From Marsupella aquatica (lineage: Eukaryota > Plantae > Marchantiophyta), in contig OZ316891.1 of NCBI GenBank assembly GCA_973895155.1, positions 12,274,771 through 12,338,770 on the forward strand: a stretch of DNA of 64,000 nt, given 5' to 3'. The position numbers were made by a program, and so were the translations under genes. This document shows, in pieces, positions 1-44,894 of the stretch. Under the pieces are notes generated by a model. The model did no database searches, was not told where the DNA came from, and saw only the letters and a list, made by a program, of their open reading frames with translations. Numbering within the stretch: the first letter of the stretch is position 1; each line of letters opens with the position of its first letter.

Positions 1-366
1 TGTGTTCGGGGATGTCGCTGTGTTCGGGGGACCGTTCATGTTGAGTGAGGGACTAAGTTGCATGTTCGAGTGAGGGACCGTTTTTGCGTGTTCCTTTACA
101 ATCAAAGTGTTCATAGTGGACAGGATGTTTGAGTGAGGGCACTGTGACAGCAACAAAAACGTCTCGACAGTTAGGGCGCTGTGGAAGCAAATAGAAGCTC
201 TCGACAACTCTCACAGCTTTTCTAGAATGTTGCGAATGACAGTATGGCCCAGACATACTCCATTAAATTAAATGGCACTTTGGAACTTTATATAGGTGTG
301 CAAATCAATACATCCAGGCGCAATCGCACTGAGCACAAATCAAACTATGATCCTCAATCTCAACTC

Positions 367-1029
367 CTACTGTAACTTATCTCCTGCAAAGCGATTCACC
401 AAATTTGTGATAGCCTTGCCTTTTGGCAATAGAACATTGATTCTCCTGGCTTTCTTGGCTGGCTGTGGTGATGGAGAGAAGTCCGTGAAGCTATCCAAAA
501 GATACAAATCAAAATCTTCTGTGGGTACCGGCTTCCTCACAGAGAGACATGCACTGACCCAATTAAAGCTGACGAACTTCACTCTCCCACTCCAGTAGTA
601 AAACTCCACAGTCCCCCATTCATACTTTGCCAAAATCGTCTGCCAATTCTTGGCAATCACATGAGTCGTCATTGAACTAAACCGGTAACAAATTGAACCT
701 CCACACTGGACAAATCGTCGCTTCAATAAATCAAATCGGCCTGGGCTGAATTCATCAGGAATCAGCAGTGCATACATGCCCTTGAATGTGTCTCGAGTCT
801 TGGCAAGTGCATGAGCCAGTGCATCCATCTCAGCTTTGACGTCTGTCTCAGCGTTTGGCTCCAGCTTAGTGCAATTTGCCTCCATCGCAGCATTTGCCTC
901 CATTTGAGTGGTCGCCTCAATCGCATTCTCATGAATGGACTCAATGTCTGCAACCAATGACTCTATGGCTGCCGCAGACTCCATCTCTGCCACCACATCA
1001 ATCCCTGCATTTGAACTCTTCTCTGCCAT
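367..1029 (-). CDS. BRCT-domain protein (acidic Ala/Glu-rich N-part, BRCT, basic NLS-like tail) inside the transposon
   Basis: Uninterrupted ORF, first ATG at 1029. FKGMYALL...FVQCGGSI...THVI...VSFNWVSACLSVRKPVPTEDFDL fits BRCT hallmarks (GG, THV, WxxxC). PAKKARR follows. Possible upstream exons at ~1370-1470 and ~1200-1290. Confidence 0.7.
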   Translation of the reverse strand: MAEKSSNAGIDVVAEMESAAAIESLVADIESIHENAIEATTQMEANAAMEANCTKLEPNAETDVKAEMDALAHALAKTRDTFKGMYALLIPDEFSPGRFDLLKRRFVQCGGSICYRFSSMTTHVIAKNWQTILAKYEWGTVEFYYWSGRVKFVSFNWVSACLSVRKPVPTEDFDLYLLDSFTDFSPSPQPAKKARRINVLLPKGKAITNLVNRFAGDKLQ

Positions 1030-1849
1030 CGCTACCAGCAAGCAAGAAAGCCTTACAAAAGATGAGAAATGAACAATGAGGCGCCTTGCACAATTGTCCC
1101 CGCCACTTTGAGAAGGGGCGTTGTGATCGATTTATGCTACAAATTAGGAAATTGCTCCAAAAGAGACAAAGTATGAAAACAGACAAAACATCCCACCATT
1201 CTCGGTCCATCACAAAATCGAGTTGGTGCCTTGAGCAAACATTGGGAACTCGGGAGGCTTTGGCTATGGACAGAAGGCAAACCAAAGAGCTGCAACGGGA
1301 GGGGTAAGTGAAGAAACTTCAGTCAATTGGAAACGGACTGTCAATCGTTAGCTCACTCATGTTAAGGTTACTTGATTGAGACTAATGCCTCCGTGAATTG
1401 CTTTGTTGCAGCAAGGATCAGAGGCCTTGAGGTCCTTGTCGTTGGCTCCTCGCGCGTTCGACTTCCTCCTTCCTGGCTCAGAACAGTACTAAGAGTGAAG
1501 GACGAAAACGGGTCAGTGCACGACAACTCATTCTTGTGCAAAGTTTCAATTCTATTGAATCATACTCATTGATGTCGACTCTGCCACTTTCTTACATTCG
1601 TTTCTCTTCATGGTCAACAGCCCACAATCGATAGTCGATAGTATATGATGAACTCGAGCGATTCTGGATGACAATAGTATTCCATAGTAACTCCTGATAT
1701 GCTTATGGCGATTTGCTTTCTTTCCAGCTTTATGAGTGACAGGAAACTAGATTCCAGAAAAAACCTTTTGTGATCGATGCTGTCTTGCACGAAGTGCTCA
1801 CATCAAACTGATACTCTGGGAAGAACGTTAATTTAAGTTTTCTCCTCCA

Positions 1850-2481
1850 TTACAAGTCATACTTCGGGATGAAACCTATACCAATAGAATTCTGGTCTCG
1901 TGCCAGGAGAAATTGACAGATTTTTCTTCACAGAAGGCAACTCACACGTGCAGCGATTGCTTCCTCAGCCTTCAACACTGCTGCCAAAATTGTGTCTTCC
2001 GGAATTTCATTGGACTTCGGATGCCTTCTGGCAACGTGAAGATCCTGTTACTGGATAATGATAATGAGTAAAGCCAGCTTCTCTAACAACTGCTAAAATG
2101 TGCATCCTTTGTTGGATCCTTATACTTTTCTTGTAACAAAATTCTTTTTCGTTAGACTTCTGCATCTGAAATAGAAACAAAATCCATGATAAAATCCTTT
2201 TGAGAGGCTTCGATTGAAGAATGAGTACTCACAAGGTAGTAGGCTGACTTGAACAGTTTATCACAGAGTGGACAGCATCAAACCTTCACAAGCTCAAAAC
2301 CAGTAACTCAGTACTGTAAGTACTCAGCTACTCCGTGACTTAGGATAAACAAAGTTGATGAGAAGTAGCTGCTCGTCATGCTCTTACCGTCTGTGCTTTG
2401 ACGGACTGCTGCACTTGAAGTTGTTGCTTGCGCTGAGATTGGTGAAGCTTTTGCTGTCGATGTTGGACTTTGCTTTGAACC
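1850..2481 (-). pseudogene. Captured multi-exon 3' fragment of a host gene (…CRSLTKKNFVTRK|DLHVARRHPKSNEIPEDTILAAVLKAEEAIA|ARDQNSIGIGFIPKYDL*)
   Basis: Short AG..GT-bounded exons at about 2388-2481, 2253-2303, 2127-2166 and 1952-2044 join in frame. The last acceptor appears mutated (CTG instead of CAG). Family not confidently named. Confidence 0.55.
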
Positions 2482-2713
2482 TACAACATAATCTCATAGG
2501 TGTGGATGGTCTGTAAGATAGCAAATTATTGTAAACAGAGCTAATTAACCATCTCGGAACTTCGCAGCAGGGAAACATGTGTCCTGATTTTACAAAGATT
2601 GGCCATCATAACTGGAGATTGGAGATGAGGGTTGTCCATTTTCTCGAGGGTTATTGTAATCCCTGGATTCCAGAAAAAACCACTTGTGATCGATGCTGTC
2701 TTGCACGAAGTGC

Positions 2714-3092
2714 TCACATCAAATTGATCATTTTTTTCAGAATTTTCCGCTTTTGTCGATCTTCCACCTGCAACGCTCTTTCTGTAAGGACTTGTTTCAA
2801 ACGGCACATTGACTTACGCAACTGGAAACAGACAGACATTGTAAGGTGAGTCCACATTCCCAAATTATCTATATCCAAGATTCTACACAAGAAATTATTC
2901 CACGAACTACTCCGATGAACAGGAAGACCGTTACCTTTGACATCCGTTCTGAATTTGGCATTCGGAGGCTTTGCGACAGCAACATCTGTTTTTGTGAAAG
3001 TAGCATGTTCTTTTCCTTTAGAAACACATACCACAGCTTGTGCAGGTCGTCCCACGACTTTAGTCTCAGTTCAGATGCTTTCCAGCCTCTGC
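2714..3092 (-). pseudogene. MRPL47: Captured C-terminal two exons of mitochondrial ribosomal protein L47 (uL29m)
   Basis: Exon 3092-2935 [37 protein letters not shown]...[12 protein letters not shown] intron, exon 2821-2714 LRKSMCRLKQVLTERA...KKMINLM*. This is the MRP-L47 signature. No N-terminal transit-peptide exon was recognised. Confidence 0.85.
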
Positions 3093-3548
3093 CTGCAAAA
3101 AAACACACATCGGACATGACCAAACACGATGATCTGACCCAGAAAATAACTCAATTGATCATACAGTTCATGGAGTCCATAGCACAAGCATTACACGAAG
3201 ACATTCAGCTCTCCCTAACAGAATTGTTGTCCGTCCGGCAGCAGGAGAAATTGCAACGGACATAGTAGGAAACCGGGCGAGGTAAAAAACCCTAATTTTG
3301 TGAAGTTGCTTGTTTGACCATTGAAACCGGGAGTCCTGATTGCTGTAGAGAGGTTCAAGGCCCCTGCCTCTTCTTCTATGGTCGCAACCAGGGTCGACCA
3401 TTCCCACCTTTCATTTCATGCCTTTTTTGAGTGTTTTGTTGTAGGCAGCCAGGGTTAAAAGTGCTATGTGAAGGAGGTTGCTACCCCTGGCATTGACAGA
3501 CCGTATTCATTGACAGACCGTATTCTCCTTTGTAGGAATTAGAGAGCT

Positions 3549-5547
3549 ATGGCAAGACATCCTCGTGGGACAGCTAATGGGAAGCGATGGACTTACTCTC
3601 TTAAGTTCAAGCTGGACGTGATTCGGGAATACAACCCCAACATCAAAGGGCAAGGCTTTGTGGCACTCAGCAAAAAATTTGGAGTGCCCCGGTCTGCTTT
3701 GAGAGGGTGGTACGAGAAGAGGGCAGAGTTGCAAGCCTCTCTTAAGGACGATAAGATCTTAACACGGAAATCACGCCGGTTAAGGGGAGGTGGACGGAGA
3801 CCATTGCTGCCCGGAATGGAGGAGGAGCTCCACACTTGGATCCTGGCACGGAATGAGAAGGGATTGAGGGTGAAGGACATGTACATTGCCAAGATGGCCT
3901 TGAAGATTGCAGAGAGGATGGCTACCAGCACAACAAATGAGGAGCTCGCGACATTTAAAGCGTCAACAGGTTGGTTGGATAGGTTCAAGAAGCGACACAA
4001 CCTGGTGTCAAGGAGACACACAACAGATCGCAAGCTACCAGAGAATGCTGTTGATTTGTGTCGGGCATTCATTCAAGAGTGCCAAGAATTGATTGACACT
4101 AACAAAATTAAGCCCAAAAACATTATCAACATGGATCAAGTTCCGCGGTACTATGAGACTAAGCCAAAGTCAACTATTGCTACCAGAGGCATTCAGACGG
4201 TGATGATGACAAAGGGTGGTACCAGCCATAAACGATTCACCATAGCTTTTTCCATCACAGGAGAAGGCAAGCATTTGAGACCACACATCCTCATCTCAAA
4301 AAGGAAGAATAAACCTGAAGTCCCGTTGGGCGTGTTTGTCGATGTGAACCAGACAAGTATATTTTTTTCAATATCTATTACTTGCAAACTAAGCTTCTCT
4401 TTTGTAATTTTCATGACTTTTTTAGGGTTGCCAGTAAACAAACTCTTTTCTAATTATTGACTGTGGGTTTTATACTATGCAGGTATGTGGAATGAACGGA
4501 TATGTTGGGAACACTTCAATGAAATAGTGATGAAGCGAGGTGAGACCCAATTCTACCGGGAGCCCACTCTATACATCATTGACGCATATGGACCCCACTT
4601 GAAGTGGCCCAAGGCACATGCAAAGGTACTGGAGGACTACAATGTGTTTGTGCGGATTGTGCCGGCGAATTTGACCTCCCTCTTGCAGCCTCTTGATGTT
4701 GCAATGAACCGGAGCTATCAGGCAGATTATGCAACACAATATGACACTTACATTGCAGATGCCTTAATTGATCCAAATTTGCAGACAACTGCAGGAAACC
4801 CTAAAGTTCCGGCTGCCAAAATGGTGGCAGAATGGGCACTTTCATGGATTGGAAATTGTCAAAAACAGGACGTGGCAAATGCATTTAGGGTAAGGTGGAG
4901 AAGTTTTGACATTATTTGTAAGTACAAACATTTTATGTGGAAACATTTGGCAAATATTTTCTAGTGAATCCTAATTAAGTTGATGCTTCTTGTGTTGTCA
5001 GGTTTGTGGCTTGGTGCCCAGCTCACAATTTGCAGTGGAAAACCTACATCTGCCACTAAGAGCTTTGTATGCAACAGACTTGGACTTGGCTGAATGGAAT
5101 GAACAGTATGGGCATGTACTTCACGAGAGTGAAGAATTGCGTCCCACTCTCGTCATCGAGCCGCCTACATGGTTTTGTCCTGAAGAGGATTACTCTTTGT
5201 TCAGATGCCTTCTTCGTTGCAAGGGTATACACGGAAGTGATGTGGACGAATACCTTGACACCTATGTCATAAAGCTGGTGGTGCACATGTCAATGTGTCC
5301 TGATCTTGATGACATTTTTGATGATGACGCTGCAGCTGACATGGTAAGTGGAGAAATGGTGGCAGGTACCTTGGCAGTGTTTGCAGCTTCAAACTTGGAG
5401 GAGTGGGAGATTGAGCTCACGGAAGTGAACCTTGACAACAAGATCATCCAAAATTTTGTGTACAAGGCGGAGGATCCTGTCAAGCGAGTTCATTTAGCAC
5501 GAACAGGGAATTACTTTTGTGTTCAGCTGAATGAAGGATTGATGTAG
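3549..5547 (+). CDS. pogo-family transposase (Brinker-like HTH + CENP-B/Tc5 HTH + DDE_1) with OTU-like C-terminal extension; exons 3549-4356, 4483-4889, 5002-5547, ~586 aa
   Basis: YSLKFKLDVI..KFGVPRSALRGW, FKASTGWLDRFKKRH, catalytic NMDQ / IIDAYGPH / LQPLD with DD37D spacing, and AFR|VCGL. Two GT-AG introns join the three ORFs in frame without stops. Confidence 0.92.
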
Positions 5548-6070
5548 TGCATGCACATCATCCTTCTTGGGTGACAACCATCTTGGGCATGTGTTCCTTG
5601 TGTCACTATGAGAGTTATGAGATCGATATTAGGACTGATTCTTCAATGAGAGTAAAATTTTGTAACTCTCATAGGTACACAAGGTGAACTTGTCCAAGCA
5701 TTTTGACTTCATTTTATGTGTTCATGATGCTTCCATACAAAAATGTTTCTCTTTTGAGGCAATTGAACACTTGTGTTTATGTTTTAAATTATGTTGTTCA
5801 CAATAGTGACCTTTTGGAACTACAAATATGTCATAATTAAATATGTTTTACATAATTATATGTTTACCAAGTGATAATGACTTGGTATATTTTTTGCATG
5901 GTTTGTAAGGTCTTATTTTGTGCAACAAATTAATTTGTTCTAGACTACTCATGACTTGTTGCATTTCAGTGTTTAAAGTAGCTACATTTTCCCAATTTAA
6001 CACTTATCTCTAACACATTGGTTGTATCCTATAATTCCAGCTTGTACCCCAAATTCATATAATGCCTAAA

Positions 6071-6233
6071 TTCGAACACAACGCCACAATTCGAACACAA
6101 CGCCACATGCTAAAAAATCATAAACAGAGTCTCAAAACTCGAACACAACGCCCTGGGCTCACTATTCGAATATAGCGCCCCTTGGCCCACTATTCGAATA
6201 TAGCGCCCGGGCGCTGTGTTCGGGGGAAGACGG
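6071..6233. repeat. Right TIR and subterminal transposase-binding-like repeats
   Basis: TCGAACACAACGCC x3, ACTATTCGAATATAGCGCCC x2, palindrome GCGCCCGGGCGC, then the terminal GCGCTGTGTTCGGGGGAAGACGG|TA. Confidence 0.85.
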
Positions 6234-8799
6234 TAGGGCTAGAAAACTTTCTTTGCAACCAAAAGAAGGGGCAGACAGGATCCACTGCAATAATACTGAC
6301 ACCAGAGAACCCATGAAAGCTTATTGCTCGTTGTAGGTGTTGTCCTCCATCTATATACTTTTCTTGTGAGTCAAATGCTCTGTTGAAAGAAAGGGGGGGG
6401 GAGGGGAGCAGAGCCCCAAATTCAAAATTACATGGCTAAGGACTGGAGCCGTGTCAAGTGATACCTACTCACAGTTAAAATGATCCAAGGCGGCTGATTT
6501 TAAGTCATGTTGCATGCCAACTGATCCCGCAACTGAGCGAAAGTCGCTGAGGACCTCAACAACTCGCTGCATGTCCTTGCGCTTAATGGTTGCCTCAATC
6601 ACCTAGCACTTTGACGATTCTCCTGTGCAGACCTTGGAGACTTGATCCAACATAATTTTCTGGTTCTAGTTTTTGCTGCTCTTTCCACCTGAATGCCCTC
6701 AGCAGATTTTCTATTACAGACACAATTTTGAATCTGGCATATTCATAGAACACTATCTGGCATTTTGAATTCCCAGTTGTGTGTCAGTTCCAGCACTTCT
6801 GTTCTCATTGCTTCAATTTCAGCACTTCTATTTTCATTGCTTCAATTTCAGCACTGTCTTTACAAAGACTTCCTGCATTGGCGGATGTGTACTTTGCTCA
6901 AGAGAATGCAAGGATGGAGTTTTGTCTAATCAATCCTTATCCTGCTGGCTCTGTTTAGATATATCCAGCAAAGCTCAGTGTCTCAGTCTCATTTCCCTCC
7001 TCTCTAAATGGGCAGTTCACCATTGCAATTGCAGAGCACACTCTAAGTAGCTATGGATAAAGGCAAAGGTTCACTGCAGCTGGATTAGGAGATAGCAAAC
7101 ATTATTGGACTAGCAACTCAATGATTGAAATGTGTCATGCCATTGAGAGTATACTTTAGTATATCGTACATCTAGGTATTGAAGTTTTGTATGTGTGCTA
7201 TATGAGCATTAAGTATTTAGTTTGAGTTTGTGCAAGGGATAGTTATCCCCTTGTGTTGGCTCAAAGGCCCCATCTTTCAATGTTGAGCCTTTGAACACAA
7301 GCTCAGGTGGCTATGGTGTGGCTGACCAAGTTGTGTGCATGTAACGTGGATTTCTTGAAGCACAAGGATCGCATCAGGTAGGATTGTTGTTGGGTTGACA
7401 TTGATCGTTGTTTGATTTGCAATATTGAAGATTATTCTGGGTTCCATTTGTACTCCATTCTCTTATGTTTGTGTTGTTGGATTATGACTATGCTTGGATT
7501 ATTATGTGTGACAAACAATGCATGTTGTGTAGTGATATGTATGCGCACAACAAATGCTCTACTCAATCTTCCACTCGGTTTTGCAGATTGATGGTTTGAA
7601 ATAGTTCATAGCAAGGTACTGCACAGGAAAGTGAGTATTGCTCGATGGATTTCTGTCATTGTGCATTTGTGCCAGCCTAACGCCTGGCCTCCATTTGTAT
7701 CTTTTGCCAGTTGAATGCATGTTTTCTTTTTTAGCCAATTTGCAATTGTCATTGTAAGAGGAAAATGTTAGATCTAGCATGTCAGAAAGGTTCAATTTTG
7801 TTTGATGAAATGATTTTCTCGCTTCCTCCTGCTGCATCTGTTCAGTGTGACTTTCATTCAATTGCAGACACACCCTCAACATCATTCTTAAAAGTTCTTC
7901 AGATTGACCAGGGATGCTAACAATATTGTTGGAGCCTGTTACATAATGTCAAGGGATTGCACAGAGCTATTACATGTTTCTTTGTAGAAATGGTCAGTTT
8001 GTGGTAGTGTTTGTTTTGGAGAAATTTCTGGCCTGCGTAATTTACTTGCTGGCTGGTTTCCTATGGTGGAGTGGTACATGTTGTGTATAATGTTTGTTAG
8101 AATGTTGAAGGACCCCTGCATCTGGAAGACTCTCATCTCCCAAGGGCCCCAAAAGCTCAGAAAGGGGACACATCACGCGGTTGCATAAACAAGGCACCTT
8201 ATAGAACTGCAAATAAATACCGCAATTTCTTGATCAAAACAATCTTGGCAGAAAAGCCTAATGTGGCAGCCTTTGAATGAAATACAACCAATCATTTGAC
8301 CTTAACAAAAAATGCCTCCATTGAAAAAATAACTTCTATAATACAGGGTTGCACCAAAAATTGCTGTGGTTGTTGTTTAAAAATGCAGGGCCGTTTTGCA
8401 TGAGAACAATACAAACAGGAAAAACCGGAAGGAATAAAGCCTGAAAAAATTCATTCCTACACTAAAGTACTGCAACCCTCACACAGGGCCACGACCATGC
8501 CTCCGCCTGACACCACACAGAATGACATTGGAGGGAAGGAGGCAGGCCCAAGGAGCCCCAACGGGAAGCCAGGCCCGACTAGCAGGAGCAAGGGAGGAGA
8601 TTCAAATTGCGAGTGGGGAGGAAGGAGGCATGACCAACTCGCAAGGGCAGGAGGAGCCAGGCCCAACTCGCAACTAAGGAGCGCTGACTCCCAACGAGGG
8701 TGCTACGACCAGGGAGCAAGGAAGGGAGAGTGACAACCCAATGGCTACCCCCTCGCCTATGACCCTGACCTGCACCCCGCCTTGCCTGACTGCTCTCAC

Positions 8800-24277: not shown

Positions 24278-27200
24278 CTAGCCTGAGAAAAAGAATTGAA
24301 TTCCCCGGCCCACATTTAGTTTCTCTACATAGCTGCTCTCTCCACCAGTGGTAAGCGGACCAGCTCCACTGATTAATTCAGTGACATTAGCACCAGTCAA
24401 GTCAATAACACCATTGGATCCATTTATTCCATTGCGCCTCTTCGTTGAGGACTTCCCCCCCTCCAAATGCCATCCCACTGGAGCTTCCACCGTGTAAGAT
24501 GTTTTGGACACTTGGCCACCAGCACCATACCTGTGTTCCTGAGAGACAGTGTACTGAGCTGTCATGAATGCAGCTTGCTCCCCAGTAGAATTCTTTATCT
24601 GCTGCTTGGCAATTCTTAAAGCCTTCAGCACCTCACCAGCTTCGCCCGCTGGAAGAGCATCGTCTGACACTCCCCCAACAGGTGCATTTCTATCCTCACG
24701 CCCTCCACTACCATCCCAACCAGCATAACCACCTTGGCTTGTAGGGGGTTGGCGATCTGGTGGCACATAGCCATTCATGGGAGGAGCTCTGGGTCCAGGC
24801 ATCCCACTACCATAGGAGTAATAATCAGGCCTCGAATTGTGAGCCCCATGCGACATGTACTGCATGTCTCGTCGATTACTATAGCTACCTGTCTCAGGAT
24901 ACAGACCTGGCTGCACATATGGAGGTTGTTGAGGCTCTTCAACTCCATACGTGGGAGGATATCCATAAGGAGGGTGACTGATTCCCCTGTTCCTCGAACC
25001 AGGATCTCCGCTTTCCTGCCAACCTCCTGGCATACCTCTGTGACCATCCTCTCTTTGCCTATAAGAGGAGGCAGCTCTATGTGGCAAATCCTGTTCAGGA
25101 TGGTCTCTGTGGTACCCATATGACATGCCTGGGGTTTCTTCATAGTGATTGGCAGGTACTCTTCGAACATCATCTGGCCTCATGCCAGGAATTTCTCGCC
25201 AGGGTCCACTTCTGTGCATGTCATCTGTCACTCTTTCTGGCATTGGCTTTGATCTGTGGTGGAATTCACGATCAGAGTTACTGTAAGGGATATCAACTCT
25301 CGCACCACCTCTACTATTATTTATAACGGGGTCATAATACATGTCACGTGAGGCCCTCTCCTGGACCTCCCTCACAGGCCAACCTTGCTGTTCCACCTCA
25401 CCTCCATGGGAGTCTGTGCGAGAAAATCTTTCCCTACTGTGGTGTCCTGCTTTGCGAGGAGAATGCATACCATTGCTTCCTGCTCTTTCTGTACTCCTTC
25501 TATACATAGCATCCTTTGAGACTCTCTTATAAGAAGAACCGACTTCTTCTCGGGAATGATGGAGGTAAATCCCATTTGGCAACTCTTCAGCAACCTCTGT
25601 TTCAGGATCGAAGAGCAGCTCCTCTTCCGGGCCACCTCTACTTTCTTCGATGGGACTGTCGTCAAGAATCTCTATTCTTCCACTCGAGCTTTCCTTAAGA
25701 GAAATTGTTCTTCGACCGGACACTCCCTGCTGCGAAGGTAAGAATCCCATAGATTTTGATCTAGAGATGCGTTCAGCATGCACATCCGGATTTCTCTCCC
25801 CTTCGCTCTGGGAGCGGGTAATACCTCTCTTTGCACTGGGACCTGATGTACCCTCTGTAACAACATCCCCGTCTGCAGTGACAAGTGCTGGTGGCTCGCC
25901 CTGCACAAACAACCAGAGGTAACTACGATCAGTACCGTGAGTACTGTATCCAATAAATTAATTAATCGAAAAAACCTGAGTGAAGGTATGAAATATCTGC
26001 AAGCATGTTTTACTTAAGTAAAATTTGTACTTTTATAGGTCACAAATAGGATCTGGTCTATTAGCACGCACACAAGTTAAATGTACAGCAGATAAACCTG
26101 AAACTCATCAAATACGGTAAGAATATGTTTTCCATAGAGGATATCCGTAATTGAACATGGGTGTTATCTCACATTAGATCCGGCTGTTTGCAGGGTTTCT
26201 AGAAGCCTATGAGGGCACTCATCCTACATATGATTAGAACACATTGTAGGCATGAAAAAAGAAACTCAGTTGCAGCTATGCACCAGAGATAAATTGCTTC
26301 TCACCTCCTTTTGTTCGAGGGTTTGCTGCGCTTCAAAATTCTCCTCCCATTCTCTTTGTGCAGTTTCCTGCAACTCGTACTGTTCAACCAATTTGGCCAC
26401 ATTCTTGGCTAGTGAAGCATTCCGCTTAAAGCTACTACGCTTCTCTGCCATAGCTTTCTTTGAAGCTTGATCTTGCTTTGGTTTATCGTTAAAATGCACT
26501 GTTTCTGTCTGCTCGCTGTCACCCTCTGATGAAACAACTTGCTGACTGTTCGGTGCTCGTCCTGAATCTCCAGAAGATTGCTTCTCTTGGAGTAGGCTTG
26601 GAAGTTGGCCCACCCATCCCGTCGGATCTTTTGATACAGACTCCTGATCTCCTCGCACTTCAGCAAGGGCAGCCATGTCCTCCCCTATTTTGGCCCACAT
26701 AGATCGTAGCCTCTCCTCAATTACGGCCCTGATCTCAGAATGAACGCCAAAGAATGAGATCAGTGGAAGCTACAGCCACCTTCTATTTTGAGTTGTAGCG
26801 ACAACAATAGATTTTCTGCCGAAAAACGTGCAATCCCAGTAGATCTGGGGGTCATTCTTATTATAAATGAACTTGTTCATGTTAGGTTCTTTTTGAAATA
26901 ATTAAGACCCACTCTCCAAAAGGGACACAATCCTGCAGGCACTTACACAAACACCGGCACTACTGACAGGAATACCACGATCACTGCACATGTAGCTGGC
27001 ACAACAAGGAACATTCGGTTCGTCTGCAGGTCTTCATTTGACATTCCGACTCGATTTCATTGTCCAAAGCCCAGCTACTGAGATTATGGGCTTCCGCGTC
27101 CGTCTGTCAAGATAATTTGCTTGATGATCGTTTGTTCGTGCGACTTGAAACCCTCATGTGCCCAAGATGGGTCTTATAGCTCAAAGCTCTATCTGATCTT

Positions 27201-30200
27201 TGACGGTCAAGTCAACCATCGAAATTAGGAATCCTGACCAGGAAAGAGTTAAGAAGGCGACCTTCTCTCGTCATCCTGTTCCGCGGAAGTTGAAGATACA
27301 AATCAGGACAACTTGTGTATTCTTCTCCAGCTCAATATTAGAAAGACGATACGGATTCTTCAATCTACGATCGGTAGATTGAAATTCTGACTATCGACCT
27401 CAGATTACGAGAAAGCCCATCTACATTTACAATTTGCTCTCTACAGATGAGTTGAGCACACATCCAGTCAGATAACTAGGAAGTCATTCACATGTGGCTT
27501 TGCTTTCTTCCAAAGATTTGGCTTGGGACCCCTAATCTTCTGAATTTTTAAGAAGATTGTAGATTAATACATTTGTTCGTCTTCAAAGTCGTGTGGTACT
27601 CTCCTCTCTTGCTAATTCCTCCACATCGTATGTCGGCCACAACGGTTCTGTTTCCTTATCTAGCTTAGAATTCAAACAGACGACACATGCTCGTTTATTG
27701 ACGGTCCAGTAGGTTCGGATTCTGTTATCGCTCCAAGAGTTGAATAAAGAGCACTGACTCAATCAGATAAATCAGAAATCATCTAAACGAATCGTCGCAA
27801 TTCAGAGAAGATTTGTTCGTCCTCAGGGTTGATTTGACGGTCCCTACCACTCATCTTGTGACTAATACTTCCGTCGATCGCAATACTCACAACATCACCA
27901 GTCAACTGCCATCTGCCGTGGCCTCCACCCCTTTTTAGATTTCAATTGCGGGCAAACCAATTTGAATATACTGTTCACTTCACGGCTGACTTCTGACCAG
28001 AATGCACACGGATCCACAAAGAAGCAAGCAAAGCTATTTACACTCCCATTACGGCCCTGTCAATTTCCCTTGCAAACGACTTAAAAAATGAAGATCCTGG
28101 AGGTTTCATGTTCCTCTCAAACGTACCCCTTGTCTTGCTTCTGCTTGGCGGGGCTGAGCGCTCTCTCCGGGCTCGATCCAGAGCTCGATTCTTGAGCCAC
28201 CTTTGAAGCACTCTTCTTTTCTCCTCCATTTACACCGACTCCTTGAACAGAAGCGGAAGGATACGTAGAGACAGAACGGTCCCTCCATAAACCCTCTCCA
28301 CTCACATCTCCATCTACCGTTGCAGCACTATCCTCATTAGCATGCTCAAGAACTCCTGGCTCCTTCTTTTCCTTCAAAGGAATATTTGTTGACAGAGGGA
28401 TCTCACCAGAGACTACCGTTTTCGGTGGAGAAAAATCAGCCTTTGACCCTACATCATCTCTTTGGATAGTTTTTATGGTGTCCTTTGGTACAGTGACGGC
28501 CACCTTTTGTGAGCTAGAGGCAGGAGTTGGACTCCCTTGTGGAACAGCTTGCTTCAGCTTTGTCAAAGCATCCTGCAGAGCACCTTCAGCAGATTTTCTG
28601 AGCTCTATTTCAGCCAATAATCTGCTTTCAAGCTCCACAACCTGCAGGACAGGAAAGAAGATTATCAATCCTGAAACGTATCAGCCTGCAATCCCGCAGC
28701 GAATCCTCGAACCAGGACAAAGTCACTACACAAGAAACGAATTGACGGCAGGAACAAAGCCCATCCCGTGCTTGTGATATGACTAAATTTGGCAACCCGC
28801 AGAAATGTACAGTTTGTGTATCCATATGACCCGAAAACAGGTTTAAGGTTTCCGATCCACCTCACATCTGACAATCAAACCGGCGAATGCGAGGCGAGTC
28901 TAAGCAGGTCCTCCCTTTGTGTCAACCCAATCAATATTCAAGAATGACATACCTTCTTTGACAAGCTCTCCAATTTCAGCTTCACAGTTTTGGAGGCAGA
29001 GCGCTCTGCCTGCAGTCGTGCTCGAAGGAACTCAATAGTCATGGAAGCTGACTCCTCACCCACAGGTCCTTTCCTGCAAGTCCGACGAAATCCGACTAAA
29101 TCCGACTAAATCCGACGAACATCAATGATGGCTGGTATAAACACATCCAATACAATACTGCTTACTTGCAATGAAACTTTTCTCAAAAGTGCTTAATAGA
29201 ACGACCATCACAACCACTCTTTGCAAACAAGCTTGGAAACAGTCCCAAGGACGAATTCATAAACTTTGCTCGTGATTCATTCGAGACACAGGAGCTGAAA
29301 AACACAATGATGTCGACAATCTGTTAGAACTTTAACAATCTCATCAGATACAGGTCTCCACAATGTACCTGCCATTCAGTGCTGGGGAGCCTGGATTGTT
29401 GAGCAGGGCCTCCTCTCTATTCTGAATTTTCGCAGCGGTGACATGTCTTACCAGCTCCTTCTCACGATACTTTTTGTCTAAGTCCACTGGTCGAAACACT
29501 ACCTCCTCCGGAAGGTCTACATGGGTTGGTATAACTGGCACTGGCTTCTCTGGGTTCTTTAGCACTCCATTAGTTCCGATCCCTGAGACTGGTATAACTG
29601 GTACTGGCTTCTCTGGGTTCTTTAGCACTCCATTAGTTCCGTTCCCTGAGGCAACGTCTCGTCTATCAGGGGCGATCTTCAGCGGCTCCTCTTGCCTACG
29701 TGGTCGAACAATTTTTCCTTCATGGTTTCCTTCATGGCTCTCAGAAGGATTCTCGGGAAATAGCTCTGTTCTTACAGTGGTGTTTGTAGTTTCCACCGGT
29801 TTAGCTGAACTCGGAGATCCTTCCTTTCCGGGGTTAAGCTCGCTATCAACAGGTATATTTCCGGATTCTCCGGGCAGGGCAAGATTCACTCCCCGTTGTA
29901 CTTGTTGGGCACTATCACTCACCTTCTCCACTGAAAGGGAATTCATCACTTGTGCTCTAAGCTGGGCTTGGCTCGGTCTCTTTACCAATTGAGGTTGCTT
30001 CACCTCAGGTGGTTGAGCAGAGGAACCGGGTGGGCTTTTGGTTAATTCTTCTGCTGACTGGGCGGCGGAGCCCGCCACCTCGTGGGAGCCACTGAGCTCC
30101 TTCATGGACGTCGATCTCCACCTTAAAGGAGTCAACTTGGGAGGATTCACTCCAACTGATTTGACCGGAGATTCCTTCTCTTGAGCCTCGTCCTGCTGCT

Positions 30201-30210
30201 CTGCCTTCAT
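24278..30210 (-). CDS. Plant coiled-coil/disordered protein of the 'MTIEFLRARL' family (Arabidopsis AT3G52240-like, from memory); exons 30210-29369, 29073-28953, 28641-28127, 26728-26305, 25900-24278, ~1174 aa
   Basis: Four GT-AG introns give one continuous frame. Conserved blocks MTIEFLRARLQAERSAS..VVELE, KLVEQYELQETAQREWEENF and EVLKALRIAKQQI. The start codon is uncertain because the frame is open to ~30327. Confidence 0.8.
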
Positions 30211-33200
30211 AGAATCCTCAATCCCATTCAGAGCACATTGCTGCAGCTCCTCCTCCTGCTCCTTAGTAAAGAGCTCACTGGGAGACCGCCTGCAAGATTT
30301 GTATCTTCCTGGGAAACACACACGCAAACCCCTCCCTTGTTAAAACTTCTTCCAAAAGCAGGAATGTTCTCCGAATGGTTCATTCCAATATGTGATACAT
30401 TCAAGAAACACATTTTGAGGCTCACATTGTGACGACAAGATCTGAATGGGAAGTGCAAAGGAAGAAAACCAGCGGGGCTCGCTTGCGATTCCAATGCCAT
30501 GAGGTCCCCAAGTTTCTGTACGCCAGTCATCGGACAAGGGGAATACCTCTTTGACTTGTCCTAAATGTACTTTCTGAACTGATGTGTCGTTCGCTAGTCT
30601 TTGACATACAGACACCAAAAAGTCTGTGAAATCTGGTCTAGTTCGGGGCCTCCTTATGCCGTACTTAATGCTAAATCGAAAAGCCTACATTCACCCCAAA
30701 CCGGGAGAGGTAGATGCAAGATAAAGGCCACTTTCCTGAAACTTGCTGTGATGAATTGCACTGAAAGTGATAGGATTAAAGCAAACCGCCTGAGTTGTAC
30801 TAGACAGCTTCTCTAGAAGAAACAGGGCTAGATAGGCTCTGGGGAGAAACCTAGCCTTTCCAGCAAAATCGTGCAATTGAATACACTATAACGTCCCAGA
30901 GAGAATCCACGCCCCAAGGTGCAGAGTCAAGAGTACAGTAACCGCCTAACGACTAGAGCGATCGGCTATGCTCACGAACGATCGACAATCGAATGTTCTA
31001 CTGATGATCTAAACTGCGAGCTTTGCCATCTGTCCCCACCCTGCTCTTGGGAGGCTTGCCGGCCCATCCCACTCACGTCATGTTCCCAATTCCACCACCA
31101 GAAATTGCCTCTTCCCGGAGCCTCGCATATCATCTACACGAGGAATTGAAGGAACTCTATTTGGGTGTGAAGCGTACACGCGGATGAAGTCACGACAGGT
31201 CTGCCAGTCAAAAGACCAGGGACCTTCCGAAATCCATCTGGTATGACATTCTCATACTCTCGTGGACGGTGCGGTTGTTGGTCCGTTGAGAATGATCCTA
31301 CCCCGCTGTTAATTTTCCTTGCCTCACTAAGTGATCTGTCCTAACTTGGTAAAGCAACTGTACATGTGCCACTGTGCCACTCGTGAGGTATGATCAAAGC
31401 AATTACTTCCGAGCAATCAACGCATCCCCTTCCAATCGTCTGACGATAACCGATGCAAGTTCCTGCCGGGTATGCTTGTCAACTAGGCGGAAAAAGCCGA
31501 AGACATTTTGAGACTCCTAATTCAAGGAGAAGGGATGAGGCAGTCCCTCTCATGGTAGCTAGATGTGCCGCAAAGCCCCAACAGATGCCTTCTGCCTTCA
31601 CCTACAAAATCGAGAACCCTGCAACGCCATTGTTCATTGACACCCCCTGGCGGGCTGCCTCTCAGTTCCATCCCTGAACCATACCCCTGGCCTACATTTG
31701 TCTGGGCTTGTATATCAGCATCTACATTGTGCTCCCATGTGCTCTCCAACGGATATTGCAAGACCGCCTGTGCGTCTTATGGCCACTAAAATTTCGTTTG
31801 TGACAGGTTTATGCAAGGGTGGATGGGTCTAACTACAACATTATGCAGACCGGGTGGTGGGTAAGTGGCAAAATTGAAGGGCTACTTCCTGACTTGATGA
31901 CAAGCATGGACACATTCCACAAGGTCACCAGCAAAGCAGCCCAGCAATCCATTCATACCTGGCATTGAGATGGCTACCGGAGTCCTCGGGTCAATAGAAG
32001 TAATCGAACGCATTTTGGGAAGCTCTCACAAACATTTGATCGCAGGATCAAAGTTTTCGTCCCTGCGCATTGCGCTGCCTGTCCGGCCTTGGATTGGAAA
32101 ATGTCTAATACTCACGCGCTCAACCCAGCAGGGGGTGATAATGTGAAAGGTTAAAAAAATCGGAGAATGAAATCACTCTATCTCCCTCTCTCCCTGCTGG
32201 TCTTCACTACATGTGTCTCGACTGCAACGCCCCACACCTCGCAACTCAGAGCTTCCCACCCTCCTCTGTGCTTTCCTGACAGATATGTTCTGGAATGTCA
32301 TTGAGCTACTCCGACCTCGAGCAGAAACAATCTCACAGGTGGCACCCACCCACATTCTGTTACTCCTCCCTTCCCTTCATAGAATCGTGAACATTCAGGA
32401 GATCGAAATCCACATTTCCTTTTACCCATTCGAAAACTCGCGAACGACTACTCTACTACCCCTCCCTCATTCCCCCTTCGTCCAACGAAAAGAGCAACAA
32501 GAACGGAAAAATCCTCACGCATTCCCCAATCCCATCATCCCCCTACCCAACCTCCAGTGCACTTCTGACTGCTACTTCTTTGCTCTCCCCTCCCTCTCTC
32601 CGACAGAAATGTGATTTCGGTGGTGGTGGCCAGAATGAGCCCACACTAGAGCACTCAGACAGGCCACTCCAGACCCCCTTCAGAATCTGTCTCTCACTCA
32701 GCCTGCCCCTCACCACTCATGGATCCCACCATCTGGACACTGCCAAATGCCAGCGAAGAGGAAACCAAAAGTAAAAACTCTCCCCCACATAACCAAACCA
32801 CCCGCATTATTACACCCCTACTCCTGTTCCCCCTCCTGCTGGACGAACGACCCCCAGACCTCCTCTGTGGATCATAACAGCAGAAGAAGACGCACGGGAA
32901 ACACCACCAGTCATCAGCATTACCGTAATACTGTACAACAACACCGCACTATAGACCGTATAATGCCTCGTGACCGCCTGCCCCATTTTCTCCCGCTATC
33001 TCTCTTCTTCCTTCCTTGCTTCTCTGATAAATGGATTCATTATAAGCGCTACATCACTCTCTGAACTCTGAACTCTGAACTCTACATTACCTGTTGTAAG
33101 TATACCCCGTATTTAACTCCGCACTGCTGCGCACACAGCAAAACTTTGGCGAGACGCATCGTCCTTCCGTCCCCTGCCGTCGCAGATCAAACAGAGCAGT

Positions 33201-37840: not shown

Positions 37841-39112
37841 TAGATGAATGAATTTCCAGGCAAGTGCCAAACTTAAGCTTGAGGAAGAAGAAAGCTCGTA
37901 TCGAAGGGCTAGGGAATTGTTAACAATTGAAAAAAAACCTTGTCCCGCATCGAATCCGTCTGGACCCAAACATCGCAGCGCTGTAAAGCAGGATACCACA
38001 AACCGATCATTTCCAGTTTCGACTGGTTTATATGCAACGGGTCCTGTTTGGCATGATATCCGTGGCATCTGACGTCAGACTTACCCAGCAGAGCCCTTAA
38101 AAACGAAAAGTCCCTCGCCCCAGTCTGTTCCCATACTTTATGAAGCTTCTTTTGAACGCAGATCCCTTTCTTTCCCTGACCTTGTACCACATACGGAAAG
38201 GGCATCTTACTGCAACGTACTTACGAAACTGTGACATAATAATTATTGTAAACAGAGACCATATCGTAATCAACAGGCGCATCGTACACGCAGAACATAA
38301 CGTATACATATACGGAAAAGGTTGCCCTGGGTGAGTTGTACATGGTGTTTATACGTGTGATGATACGTAAAAAATGATGGGCTGCCATATGATGAGTTTC
38401 ACCATGGCATATGAGAAACGGACGGCCCAGTCAAATGTTCCTGTTGACTGCTACGGCGGACTTCGGCTGCCGTAACTCTTGCTCAGAATGTAATCTTTAA
38501 TTAGTAAGATCGATTCAGTATTGTGGCCGTTACACTAGATTGTCATCCTGTAGTACGGTTGTTAACCTTACTAGTGCTTCTGGGGTTTCAGGTTTGGAAA
38601 ATGTGGACGTTTTAAGTTCAGTCAGATTCCTAGCATTGTTTGAGAAACACAAACTTACAAGAAAGAGTTATGGTAATGAAAATCCTACATTAGTGTTTTA
38701 TTTGCAGAATCCCTTTCATTGTCAGACTCGACAAAGTCTTGGCACTGCTATTTGAGGGAAGAAGATAAGGAAAGGGCAAAAACACAAGGCCAATCTTCTT
38801 TTATCAAATACAATTCTTAGGGTTTAGTGTCCACTATCTGACTGATTTTGCAGAGTGCTTAAGCTTGAACCATCCCATGGTAAATCTCTGGCCGTGGGTA
38901 TGAGTGCACCTCAGCAGAACCTGCCCTCTTAGGGGACATCCATGACTTTGTTATGAAACTAGATGTGTACCTTAAATCATAACATGAAGCAAGTGGTAGT
39001 TCTTGATCTCTTGCTTTTATCTCTTTAGGGGTTTGCATTTGCACTTTTCTTTTGAGTTTGATGTCTGTCCTCTATGGATCTATTTTGCTTTTATTACATA
39101 GTACTATGTTTG

Positions 39113-42100
39113 TATTCAGAGACAAGAAGATGAAAGTAGAACATTCGCCAACAACTGGAGGTTCCCTCCAACTTCCATTACCTTATAGAGTCCCTAAGGA
39201 CTCGATCTATTACATGCGGTTAGGTTGTTAGTAACAACCTAAGCTTCGGTTAGTTAGGACTAACTAACCCTACTACCATGACTTGGGTTAGTGTTAACTC
39301 CATATTACAACACTCCCCCTTGGTTACTTGAATAGCATAATAAAGTAACCATCTTAAGGAGTAATACTAACCCTAGGTGGATTATTTTGGTACCCATAAG
39401 GAGAGTGTGGTCTCATTAAACCCCCCCCCCCCCCGCTTTCTTCTGGGGGAAAGAGTACCACCACTTTGTACATTGCATGGGTCCGTATTGAAATGCAGAT
39501 GCAGAGTAGAAAAGAAAACTAAGAGTATTGCGCTGCAGCATTCCTAATAAGGTATGTGACCTAAAACTGGCTTATGTTACGTCTTTTTACGAAGGGAAGG
39601 AGTTTAGCATGGAGATGACGGGTCGCTGCGTCTCCATGTGTAATGCTTCGTTATTTTCGTATAGACGGTGAAGGTAAATGGCTGCTGTGTCTTCTATAAT
39701 CGTGCAGAAGATGGAGGCGGATCGCAATGGTCATGTCTGCTCTGTGTGCAGTGTGGATAGGCTTCTCATGCCAATGCCGTATGAATGTTCCTTATGCAAA
39801 ATTGGTGGTAATGGCTTTGTGAATAAGTCTGCTCGGTTGTCTCGGCTGGGTATCCATTCGACCTGAATTTGATCACCGTGCTGTTCATGTGTATAAAAGA
39901 ATTTCGGTGAGATGTGTTTAATTCTGTCACCTTTTATGAAGCCATGAGCAATTTGATCCACACAGGGGCGGTTGTCTTCGTAAATAGTAGTGGGCTTTTG
40001 AAATTGTTGGCGACCAGTGTGCTTGTGGATGTGATGGAGCATGCTGTGTAACCATACACATTCTCTGCAGGCTTCATACAGAGCTATGATTTCCGCATGA
40101 TTAGAGGATGTTGTGGTTAGTGTTTGCTTGGAGCTTCGCCATGAAATTGCAGTGCCACCTTGAAGAAAAACGTACCCTGTTTGTGATTTGGCATCTCCAG
40201 GGTCAGAGAGGTAGCCGGCATCTGCAAATCCAATCAATTTGTCTTCAGCATCTTTCGGAAAAAATAGACCAACGTCGACTGTGCCCTTCAGGTATCGAAA
40301 AATCCTTTTCAGCCCATTCCAATGGCGGATGGTTGGCTGAGAACTATGTCTGGCCAATAAGTTGACAGCAAAAGAGATGTCGGGACGAGTCTGATTAGCC
40401 AAATACATAAGGGCGCCAATGGCATTGGTGTGTTGACAGGGTGAGCTGCTTGCATATTGAACTGTCGTAAAATCTTCTCTGTGTAGGTAGATTGACTAAT
40501 CAGAATACCATTGTGCAGGTAGTCGAACTGAATGCCGAGGCAGAAGTTAGGTGGACCAAGGTCCCTCATTTCGAATGTGCCCTTCAGAATACTGAGTGTA
40601 TGGGCTGTGAGTTGTGGTGTCCCGAATATATTCAGGTCATCTACATAGATAGCTATTATGACAAATTCCTCTGCCTGAGATTTTAGAAATAGACAGGGTG
40701 CTAGCTCATCATTTATAAATCCCAAAGCTAACATTTCAGCTTGGAATCGTTTATACCACATCCGGCCACTTTGCTTTAGGCCGTACATTGAACGCAAGAT
40801 TTGTACGGCATATTCCATTTGAGGTCTCTTGCTACGTGCAATAGGCACTTGTTGTGTAGTATGTGGTGGGTATAGCCCACCAGAGCAGACAGTAGGTCCT
40901 GAATTTGTAATTTGCGCAATTAAGGGCTCAGTAGGAGCCATCTGGATCATACCAGATCGTAGTGATTGGACTGATATGCCTGACTTCTCCCCCTGAATGT
41001 GGAAAGATAATCTATTAAGAAGCTCTGGAGGAGCTTTCATGTAAATTTTGGTATCTAGCATGCCATACAGGTAGGCTGTTATTACATCCAGGATGTGCAT
41101 GACTAGCTTGTGTAGTAAAGCAAACGCTATCATGTAGCGGTATGTAATGGAGTCCATCACTAGGGAATGTGTCAGGTCATAGTCTTGACCTGGGATTTGG
41201 GTGTAGCCCTTCGCCACTGGCCTTATATCTAACTACTTCGCCCTTGGCATTTCTCTTTCGGATGAAGATGAATCTGTAGCCGGTCAGATGGCTGTGGGTG
41301 GGAGCTGGAGTGATTGGTCCAAAAACCTGGCGTTTGATCAAAGAGTCAAGTTCAGAGTTAATAGCCGCTTCCCATTGGGGCCAGTCTGGACGAGATTGAC
41401 ATTCTGTTACTGTCAATGGATCTGGAGTATCATTGGTTATCTCTTCTGATATCAGATATGCAAATGCATAATCTATGGTAGTGGTTTCTCGTTTCCAGAC
41501 TTTGCCTGAATGCATATATTGGATGGCTATTTCGTCATTGTCGTTAACTAAAGTTGGTTGGGGTCCAGGGGATGCAGGTGTGGGTCTTAGGGCTATAGGT
41601 ACAACAGCTGTGGTCTGGCGTTGCCTGGGTTGGCTATCTTTCGAGCCTAGTGGTCTGCCCCTTTTTGCCTTAGGGGGGGCTTCGGTAGCTAGTCGAGTGG
41701 GTTGGATTCGTGCTGGTGCATTGGCAGCTGGTATTAAGGACCGAGTGACATTTGCTGCATCATTAAAGGCGTCTGGGAGTTTCTCTAACATTTGTTGAAG
41801 GTGGAGGATTTTCTGTACTTCTGCTTCGGTTTGGACTGTCCGTGGGTCATGCTGGAAAGGGGGTTTTAACTGCCATTGTAATTCCGGAGTATGGACAAGG
41901 GGACTTGATGTCTGGTTCTCCATTAATTTGGGGAAATCGTCTTCAATAAAATCACAATCAAGGAACCGTGCCTTGAATAGATCTGCTGTAGATGGTTCTA
42001 AGTATCGAATAATCGATGGTGAGTTGAATCCTACATATATCCCCTGTTGTCTCTGTGGGCCCATCTTGGTGCGTTTGGGTCCCAAAATGGGGACCAGTAC

Positions 42101-44894
42101 CAAGCAGCCGAAGATGCAAAGGTGAGAGACATCAGGTGGGATCCCGAACAATAAATGGTGTGGGGTGTACTTGTTATAGGCAGATGGTTTGTATCTGATG
42201 AGGGAGGAGGCTTGTATGATGGCATGACCCCATGCTGATATAGGTAAATTGGTCTATAGCAGTAAAGGTCTGGCTATCATCTACAGTCGCTTGATTAAGG
42301 ACTCAGCTATTCCATTCTGGCAGTGTACATGGGGGACAGGATACTGAACATCGACCCCTGCAGTTTCGCAGTATGTGTCGAATGTCCGGGATGTGAATTC
42401 ACCGGCATTATCGACTCGCAGGGTGCGGATTGGATGATCTGGAAATTGTGATCTTAGTTTCAGTATGTTGGACAATATCCGAGAAAATACAAGGTTTCTG
42501 GTTGATAGCAAGGAGACTTGGGACCATTTGGAGGAAGCATCAATGAGTACTAGGAAGTATCGGAAGGGGCCTGATGGGGGGTCTATAGGGCCGCACACAT
42601 CGGCATGTAGGCGTTCAAGGAATCGGGGTATAGAATATATATGGTTTTGTCAATGGAGGGGCGGATGACAAGTTTACCCTGGGAACATGCTGTGCAGATT
42701 TGTTTACTTTGGGACGGGTGTACGCCAAGTGGGATGCCAACTGTGTCCTGAATGATTCTGTGGTACATGGTGGTGCCCGGATGACCAAGGCGGAGATGCC
42801 ATTGGTCTGTGAGTGTTCTGGTTGCCTTTTCTGTGTGATATGAATATATGTGAGGGATATAGAGGCCAGGAGGATGGTTTAACAGGGTCTCTTTGATTAT
42901 GAGTCCTATATTAGTTTCGACCAAAATGTGCAGTACCTCCTGTCGATCTTGTTTGCTGGTATGGATGTGTAGGTTGTTGTCCCATATATCACGAAAACTT
43001 ATCAAGTTGCGGGTGGCTGTAGGGGCGTATATGGCTGATCGAATGCGGATGGTTGTTCCTCCAGGAAATCGGACTATGGCTGGGCCATTGCCCTCTTCAA
43101 TGTGATTCTGTCCAGTGATGGTTGTGACAGGGCGATTGGATCGAATGATCTTGGTGAAGTATTTCTTGTGGCGTAGTATTGAGTGGGATGTTCCGCTGTC
43201 CACAATACAATATGTGGGAGCAGGATCGGCAGGGAGGTCGCTTTGTAAACTAACAGTATGAACCTCAGGTAAAGGTGAAGAGACTACGTACTGGTCAATT
43301 TCATTGGGTGCCTCTAGGAAATTGCCGTGACGTCCGGGGCCTAGTTGATGCAAATTATCTTGATATAGCTTCACTAAGTGGGCAGGGGCACGACAATCTT
43401 TTTGTGTGTGACCTTTAGTTCCACATCTAAAACAGGTGGGAGTGTCAGACTTATCTTTGTTGTAGGTGAGGTAGCCTCGACCTCTGCCGCGGCCGAAGCT
43501 GCGGCCTTGTCCTCTGTTGCCTATCCGGTTCCAGGTTCGCCTCGGTGATGTTTGCCAGTCGTTGCTCCTGCCCATGTCCCGGTCAAAGCGGCCTCGTCCT
43601 CTTCCTGTCGAACGTCCTCTGCCGCCATAGAAACTTCTGCCTCTGCCTCTAGTGCTGCCTTCTCCTCTGTTGAAGTGGGTCTCGGTCTTGGTTGGTGGTG
43701 CAGCACTGCCGGGTGGTCGAGTTTTGGCATTTTCAAGGAGCAAGATCTGGTGCTTTTCTGCTAATAGCATGTAAGCGATTAGTTCAGAATATCTGGTAAA
43801 GTTCATGTTACGGTATTGTGCCGAGAGTACCAGGTTTGTAGCATGAAATGTCGATAGCGTCTTCTCGATTTGTTCTTCGTCTGTTACAGGGTGATCGCAT
43901 ACTGCTAGCTGTGAGGTGATACGAAATAACTCGCTGTTGTAGTTGGCAATTGTAGCATGGTCTTGAACTCGTAAATTGATCCAATCGTGGCGTGCTGCAG
44001 GGAGTGATATAGTTTTCATGTGATCAAAGCGAGATTGTAGGTCCTCCCAGAGTAAACGTGGGTTATATTGATTCAAGTACTGTCGCTTCAATGGGGCTGC
44101 CAAGTGATGACGAATGAGGATGAGGGCCTTCGCCTTCTCTTGAAGAGTGCATCCAGCGTCTGTGGTGATCGTATCTTGGAGAGATTTGGAGCTGAGATTG
44201 CTTCAATATCCAGGGACCACGATAAGTAGTTGGCCCCATCGATTGACAGTGCCTCAAATAAAAGTTTCTCTATGGTGGTCATTGTGTCTATCTGGGGTAG
44301 TCTATGAATGTGAACTGTTGGAAATCAATGTCGAATGTTCAGAATGCTATAACTGTCGGATTTAGATGCCTTGAATATTTTCGTGTGGATTTCGTGGATG
44401 GATGACTGTGGCGCTCTTCCTTCGTAAAAGAGAATGTGGGCAATTTGATGGAATGCGAAGTCTCGCTGCAGGAATGATCGCTGATCTCTGGTGGGGGTCA
44501 ATTAATCTCAAGTGTTGGGTGACGCTTCACAGAGTTCGGAAGAAAATCACAAAGATGAGTCGTGGATACAATCGCTTTTTGGGTAGTGCGCAGTATGGCA
44601 TTGATGGCTTGTGATTCGTGGACAGTCAGTTCATGCGCCAGTGTATGAGAAAAAAAATTTCTATGCTCAGCTTTGGCAGCTCGTGCTGATAACGTATTCA
44701 GAGACAAGAAGATGAAAGTAGAACATACGCCAACAACTGGAGGTTCCCTCCAACTTCCATTACCTTATAGAGTCCCTAAGGACTCGATCTATTACATGCG
44801 GTTAGGTTGTTAGTTACAACCTAAGCTTTGGTTAGTTAGGACTAACTAACCCTACTACCATGACTTGGGTTAGTGTTAACTCCATATTACAACA
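39113..44894 (-). mobile_element. Full-length Ty1/Copia LTR retrotransposon, Bianca-like, frameshifted
   Basis: 200-bp LTRs at 39113-39312 and 44695-44894 with 3 mismatches. TG...TA ends on the minus strand, TSD GTTTG (39108-39112, 44895-44899), PBS CGTTATCAGCACGA (44694-44681), PPT AGGGGGAG (39320-39313). Confidence 0.95.
39731..44282 (-). pseudogene. gag-PR-IN-RT-RNaseH polyprotein of the Bianca-like element, broken into at least 6 ORFs
   Basis: NYLSWSLD, CFRCGTKGHTQKDC zinc knuckle, CIVDSGTSH protease, WHLRLGHPG, RVDNAGEF integrase, YGLKQSG/YVDD RT, FADAGY/YEDN/ADLFTK RNase H. Confidence 0.93.

Follow-up and report, generated by a model that had tools for sequence, protein, structure and literature searches.

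Pack-MULE, Pack-CACTA, Pack-hAT, Pack-PIF and Pack-Mariner elements have been published as Pack-TYPE transposons and are defined as non-autonomous (Gisby and Catoni 2022, PMC8903248). That source treats rice, maize and Arabidopsis only, and the word pogo is absent from its main text. In animals, Pack-terminal inverted repeat (Pack-TIR) elements and Ssk-FB4 captured host sequence at the DNA level, with subsequent transposition of the multi-copy cases, and template switching by gap filling or FoSTeST has been proposed for the capture (Tan et al. 2021, PMC8277862). Within the pogo superfamily, Passer is listed from animals and stramenopiles, and land plants are represented by Lemi only (Gao et al. 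2020, PMC7386202). Here we describe a 64,000-nucleotide stretch of the liverwort Marsupella aquatica (contig OZ316891.1, 12,274,771 to 12,338,770; hereafter the window) that opens with what is probably a multi-copy cut-and-paste pogo element of Passer-like type. Its transposase gene is unbroken, and some 3.5 kb of passenger DNA likely separates the left end from the start of that gene. The passengers lie on the minus strand and consist of MRPL47 exons with their intron, an 850-base insert and an intronless open reading frame (ORF) of 220 amino acids. A first-pass annotation of the window had already proposed a gene-carrying pogo/Passer element longer than 6.2 kb. Its premise that plant gene capture is described mainly for Pack-MULE, Pack-CACTA/Pack-TIR and Helitron elements was too narrow, given the published Pack-Mariner, Pack-hAT and Pack-PIF (PMC8903248).

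The transposase is encoded on the plus strand at 3549-5547 in three exons, separated by introns of 126 and 112 bases that have GT-AG borders, and its spliced product of 586 amino acids has no internal stop. In Pfam it matched HTH_Tnp_Tc5 (E=1e-15, 57.8 bits) and DDE_1 (E=3e-5); a BrkDBD match of 19.1 bits fell below the cut-off of 23.4. The protein thus combines a DDE_1 (DDxD) catalytic domain with a CENP-B-type helix-turn-helix (HTH), the domain set of the pogo superfamily, and its catalytic residues D196, D303 and D341 give a DD37D spacing. Intronless relatives of 567-576 amino acids aligned over its full length at 42-43%, and named relatives came from Riccia sorocarpa, Chara braunii and Phytophthora sojae. 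A quick-method tree of 39 rows put the transposase and these relatives within one 13-row group (Shimodaira-Hasegawa-like approximate likelihood ratio test, SH-aLRT, 98), without resolution of its inner branches; the nearest rows by path were one P. sojae and one Riccia protein.

With Passer the element shares the putative TA target, seen at the right end, and the opening of its TIR, which reads CCGTC where listed Passer TIRs open with CCGTA or CCGTC (PMC7386202). Its first 13 TIR bases equal the listed TIR of Phpa-PasserA-1-SAR from Phytophthora parasitica. Brinker-like, HTH_Tnp_Tc5 and DDE_1 domains are shared as well, with BrkDBD below the cut-off here, and Passer is recognized by BrkDBD plus HTH_Tnp_Tc5 or by HTH_Tnp_Tc5 alone. 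In contrast, 'almost all' Passers are DD35D, one listed Passer being DD37D like the present element, and our tree contained no named Passer reference. We therefore call the element Passer-like rather than Passer. On this point the first-pass annotation went too far; an unbroken transposase and cargo inside the ends of a pogo element longer than 6.2 kb were both upheld. Unlike the listed Passers, the element has two introns, a land-plant host and passengers, and its estimated length of about 6.3 kb compares with 1.2-5.2 kb for the pogo superfamily.

Five public runs contain the stretch; none is recorded as RNA, which carries no information on expression. To place the window among other copies, assembled contigs from four of these runs (X1-X4, from two studies) were aligned to positions 1-8000 at 85% likeness. 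The results given here cover the best 15 of 48 joints, the best 12 of 20 'between' rows and the best 40 of 954 differences. Joints are defined by their coordinates and the letters between them, without match lengths, and depths are summed contig depths relative to the flank, not copy numbers. Among the 40 differences, 23 lie in the transposase coding sequence and 16 of these are synonymous, against a random expectation of 22% (P about 1e-6, or 1e-4 if the expectation is 30%). This excess argues that the transposase of the family has been under selection. The window's own transposase departs from other copies at a few conserved residues, for example 270. Four loci, L006, L008, L009 and L010, hold close but broken relatives. 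Directly 3' of the stop codon lies an inverted repeat of 36 bases (81%; 5582-5617 and 5663-5698), and the sequence behind the transposase (5548-6060) has a CpG observed/expected ratio of 0.07 at 32% GC, with a CpG ratio of 0.5-0.8 in the cargo.

The right end behaves as a mobile end. Just past its TA, 16, 38, 54 and 54 contigs of X1-X4, respectively, diverge from the window (agreement 0.36-0.41), and so many differing flanks are the mark of such an end. Besides the TIR and the subterminal repeats (Table 1), this end includes a palindromic inner part. All six exact copies of an 8-base core in the window sit at the two ends (1, 19 and 6215 on the plus strand; 6073, 6092 and 6140 on the minus strand), and the pairing of a right TIR with mirrored left subterminal repeats reported in the first pass is confirmed. 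In all four runs, contigs carry right-end-like sequence to 6222, then 10 letters, then base 1; they are about 2-4.6 times as deep as the contigs of the junction and the flank. This joint puts a third core 18 bases upstream of the window, continuing the 18-base period. From symmetry with the right end we infer that the left TIR starts about 49 bases upstream of base 1, which would make the element ~6,280 bases long. Of the predicted left end, the mirrored repeats extend upstream in every run; the TIR proper lies past the window's edge. A scan of 1-6200 at up to 5 mismatches found no TIR-like sequence, and the right TIR is the only one that it found in the window; no TIR separates cargo from transposase. 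In a distant relative (L002, 2151-3066, pogo) a TIR of the same type, 19/30 identical, lies only 230 bases before the ATG, so a stretch of 3.5 kb ahead of the ATG stands out among the relatives examined. A search of the JGI metagenomes with the TIR pattern returned 0 stretches, and an Rfam scan of 1-8000 returned 0 matches.

Some smaller features lie in the left part of the element. The internal repeat copy at 1116-1136 may be left over from an earlier left end, or it may be a transposase-binding site. A second short repeat has three copies in the left end (43, 68 and 131; span 43-145) and none at the right end, and contig joints show other copies that skip 34-177 or 38-83. Bases 16-31 were considered as the right end of another copy and rejected, because the core there has the 18-base period and mirrors the right subterminal repeats.

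Table 1. Coordinates of the element's parts in the window
Feature	Position	Strand	Basis or remark
Left subterminal repeats, core at 1 and 19, 18-base period	1..33	+	window opens within repeats
BRCT-like ORF, intronless, 220 amino acids; acidic helical N-terminal part and diverged BRCT-like domain	367..1029	-	Pfam matches below cut-off, weak PDB matches
Internal subterminal-repeat copy, left-end orientation	1116..1136	+	18/21 match; reached by 1/500 shuffles; ~90 bases before start of BRCT-like ORF
Duplicate of MRPL47 3' end (last codons, stop, 3' untranslated region)	1747..1812	-	94% identical to 2663-2728
850-base insert, three exon-like blocks (2480-2388, 2165-2107, 2044-1946)	1813..2662	-	fewest copies
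MRPL47 last exon with stop, 35 residues	2714..2821	-	tblastn segment 31/36 identical to Calypogeia fissa protein
MRPL47 intron, 113 bases, GT-AG	2822..2934	-	splice-border reading
MRPL47 middle exon	2935..3092	-	first exon (residues 1-45) absent from whole window
Spacer, cargo to transposase ATG	3093..3548		telo-box motif at 3287; 17-base tandem duplication 3491-3524
Transposase exon 1	3549..4356	+	Brinker-like and Tc5 HTH domains, first catalytic D
Transposase exon 2	4483..4889	+	the other two catalytic D residues, DD37D
Transposase exon 3 to stop	5002..5547	+	spliced translation
Right subterminal repeats, five copies of 20-base unit	6066..6207	+	repeat search
Right TIR	6213..6233	+	reads CCGTC... 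outside in
TA target-site dinucleotide	6234..6235		many unrelated flanks start directly past TA in other copies

The clearest passenger is MRPL47. Two exons with the intron between them, as first annotated, encode residues 46-133 of the 133-amino-acid protein of Calypogeia fissa. Exon identity is 98% to this nearest relative and 90% to Riccia fluitans. Residues 1-45 were found nowhere in the 64-kb window, and with the first exon missing, the window's MRPL47 was rejected as a host locus. C. fissa has two full-length MRPL47 genes on record, whereas the window copy is 5'-truncated; the refuting case named by the first-pass annotation, a sole syntenic host locus at this place, was not encountered. 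The window copy is altered at residues common to C. fissa, Riccia and Marchantia; at one of them other contigs in three runs have the host residue. In run X4 one contig across the intron reaches about 4 times flank depth, above expectation for two host genes. Retention of the intron means capture at the DNA level; the MRPL47 piece is a truncated duplicate captured as DNA. A putative ATG upstream in the same frame, with a donor near 3204-3164, might supply a front part for the MRPL47 exons. This pair and the telo-box motif at 3287 are the only hints at the bidirectional promoter (~3130-3548) and the chimeric transcript that the first-pass annotation suggested as possible. The 17-base tandem duplication in the spacer lies 25 bases before the transposase ATG, and a contig of run X4 goes back from 3524 to 3491, so the copy number of this duplication is possibly variable.

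Within the MRPL47 region lies the 850-base insert. A 66-base segment, the MRPL47 3' end, flanks it on both sides as a direct repeat (94%). Its three blocks are in consistent phase with each other, which agrees with the first-pass call of a multi-exon fragment. Against that call, the exon borders were set manually, a stop and a non-GT donor occur in one block, and the search for a parent gave none. The blocks had no match in PDB or Pfam, with one block scanned in Pfam in frames other than the preferred one. Insert depth is the lowest of the passengers, 1-2.6 times the flank, and the joints 1754->2670 (X3) and 1839->2352 (X2, X3 and X4) are compatible with copies that lack the insert or retain only a portion. 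We read the insert as probably the latest capture.

The third passenger is the ORF running from 1029 to 367, an open frame of 220 codons with a good start context. It had been annotated as a BRCT ORF. The open minus-strand frame is real, but the Pfam BRCT-type match of 21.8 bits is under the cut-off of 27. The best PDB matches were to Pol lambda (E=0.017) and TdT and were weak, with E-values of 0.017 and 0.025; in a second PDB search all six matches were Pol lambda, TdT or CTD-phosphatase chains. Two single-sequence folds gave predicted local distance difference test (pLDDT) scores of 38.7 and 34.9, too low for use. Homologue searches came out negative at E<=0.001 for 162 candidates of 121-385 amino acids and at E<=1 for 73 candidates of 386-2000 amino acids, both weak blanks. 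The searched library contained C. fissa proteins and gave no match, so the ORF has no near-identical source among annotated host genes. Of the three minus-strand segments initially attributed to host genes, only MRPL47 can thus be assigned a parent; none was found for the BRCT-like ORF or the insert.

An alternative is that the ORF is the family's own long-held second gene, with only MRPL47 and the insert as recent captures. An intronless open frame in a good start context, the absence of close relatives in both size classes and the highest depth among the passengers (7-11 times the flank) would all fit. On the other side, synonymous changes make up only 2 of the 6 differences listed for it (P=0.39 against random), with no sign of selection, and four joints skip 62-112 bases within the ORF in other copies, the letters between being not known. 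Eleven distant transposase loci, most with short flanks, encode no relative of the ORF, nor do they match the cargo beyond one 21-base hit (E=0.09). We consider a long-held second gene unlikely; it would alter the status of one part and not that of the element. The BRCT domain of Pol lambda works in end joining. An autonomous Passer-like transposon might have recruited such a domain as an accessory gene. At breaks of the element itself, the encoded protein would engage or obstruct end joining, steer repair to template copying and so promote serial capture. This is a long shot.

The cargo appears to be multi-copy and layered. Depth relative to the flank falls from 7-11x in the BRCT-like ORF, through 6-8x in the spacer ahead of the ATG and 3-5x in MRPL47, to 1-2.6x in the insert. 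The likeness in depth of the ORF to the spacer suggests that the ORF is the oldest cargo layer, and the layering as a whole suggests serial capture at the DNA level. In the mechanism that we propose, the transposase would bind the TIRs and subterminal repeats and move the whole ~6.3-kb unit to TA sites, and passengers would be acquired one after another when breaks inside the element were repaired with template switching. The BRCT-like ORF likely came first, the MRPL47 exons second and the 850-base insert last, and the 66-base duplication would be the scar that this final capture left. Most likely the MRPL47 piece and the insert are decaying fragments that travel with the element.

A composite origin would explain part of this pattern differently. 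Here a non-autonomous Pack element (1 to about 3100) would have captured the cargo and then come to lie beside a compact autonomous element, the two now forming one unit with their inner ends lost. Acquisition through neighbouring insertions has been proposed for Pack-TYPE elements (PMC8903248), depth does rise from the cargo to the transposase, and the subterminal-repeat copy at 1116-1136 could be a relic. That copy, however, is oriented like the left-end repeats and not like an inner right end, the same TIR scan of 1-6200 revealed no inner relic, and the spacer before the ATG is about as deep as the BRCT-like ORF. We regard a composite as rather improbable and retain serial capture within one element.

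Several points weigh against a single cargo-bearing element. The left TIR and left TA fall beyond the window and were not seen. No listed contig spans the element end to end, a joint from the left end to the putative promoter may hide among the joints beyond the best 15 of 48, and the source of the window may itself be among runs X1-X4. At 10-24x, transposase-like depth is higher than that of the cargo, so there are many relatives without this cargo. MRPL47 depth includes the host genes, and the joint 1754->2670 is also readable as allele mixing between the two 66-base copies. The BRCT-like ORF and the insert lack a host parent, and the synonymous count in the transposase draws on the best-supported differences only. 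Despite multi-copy depth and many right flanks, no listed contig links the cargo to a second flank.

Two further explanations were considered. The locus might be a segmental duplication of a host region with an MRPL47 pseudogene, the pogo being merely adjacent; the left boundary is beyond view, and the host looks polyploid or duplicated, judging by the two MRPL47 genes of C. fissa. We find this very improbable, since the right flank is near single-copy with a sharp border at the TIR, repeats of the element's type are present beyond the cargo as well, and unrelated truncated pieces are juxtaposed. Alternatively, the assembly might have joined repeats in this repetitive region, which no listed contig spans. 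Yet in the three runs with a listed contig over the TIR-flank junction (X1, X2 and X4) the match has 0 differences, and contigs match the internal pieces 1124-1451, 1810-2327 and 2124-2443 with 0-1 differences; an artefact is hardly conceivable. None of the three refuting outcomes named beforehand by the first-pass annotation was encountered, and a gene-carrying Passer-like element is the reading that we keep.

How does this element compare with known gene carriers? Like Pack-TYPE elements it carries host coding sequence between its ends (residues 46-133 of MRPL47 with an intron) and several unrelated pieces, and has a low copy number. Unlike them it has an unbroken 586-amino-acid transposase and so departs from the non-autonomous, transposase-free type. 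The element works like a Pack element without being one by definition. DNA-level capture is likewise seen in animal Pack-TIRs and Ssk-FB4, whose multi-copy cases then transposed, and the median captured size in Pack-TIRs is 224 bp (PMC8277862), against ~3.5 kb here, which forms three layers or more and accompanies an unbroken transposase. KI-MULE (Mutator; PMC8277862) and the 14-kb ToxhAT (hAT; PMC12506042) are TIR elements of other superfamilies with a host-type gene; in the present case the identified passenger is truncated, and one whole ORF is without established origin. In a literature search of incomplete coverage we found no cargo-bearing pogo in plants and no Passer in liverworts. The words pogo, Mariner and liverwort occur 0 times in the available part of a 2026 review (PMC13317346), and the available part of PMC3597677 does not mention BRCT.

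The novelty lies in the carrier, a Passer-like pogo from a land plant that combines Pack-type capture with an intact transposase; the principle of capture was already known. The element extends Passer-like pogo to land plants, where the 2020 survey had only Lemi, and has relatives in Riccia and Chara. Pipelines for Pack-TYPE elements skip transposase-encoding elements and would miss this class of carrier. If the left TIR is confirmed, this would be a self-sufficient element that captures genes and varies from copy to copy in its cargo layers. A single family would then reveal in which order and at which breakpoints capture took place, and transposition with cargo could be tested without a helper element.

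The rest of the window contains other features. Large exon-like host-gene ORFs lie on the minus strand at 24278-30339 and 61632-62207; four were scanned and none rose above the Pfam cut-off. At 7170-7553 there is a very high-copy repeat of ~380 bases, with a summed depth of up to roughly 90-330 times the flank and loose ends at both borders. The minus strand at 39112-44894 carries a long terminal repeat retroelement that we take, from its motifs, to be Copia-like. Its terminal repeats are 98.5% alike over 201 bases, and its coding region consists of four separate ORFs.

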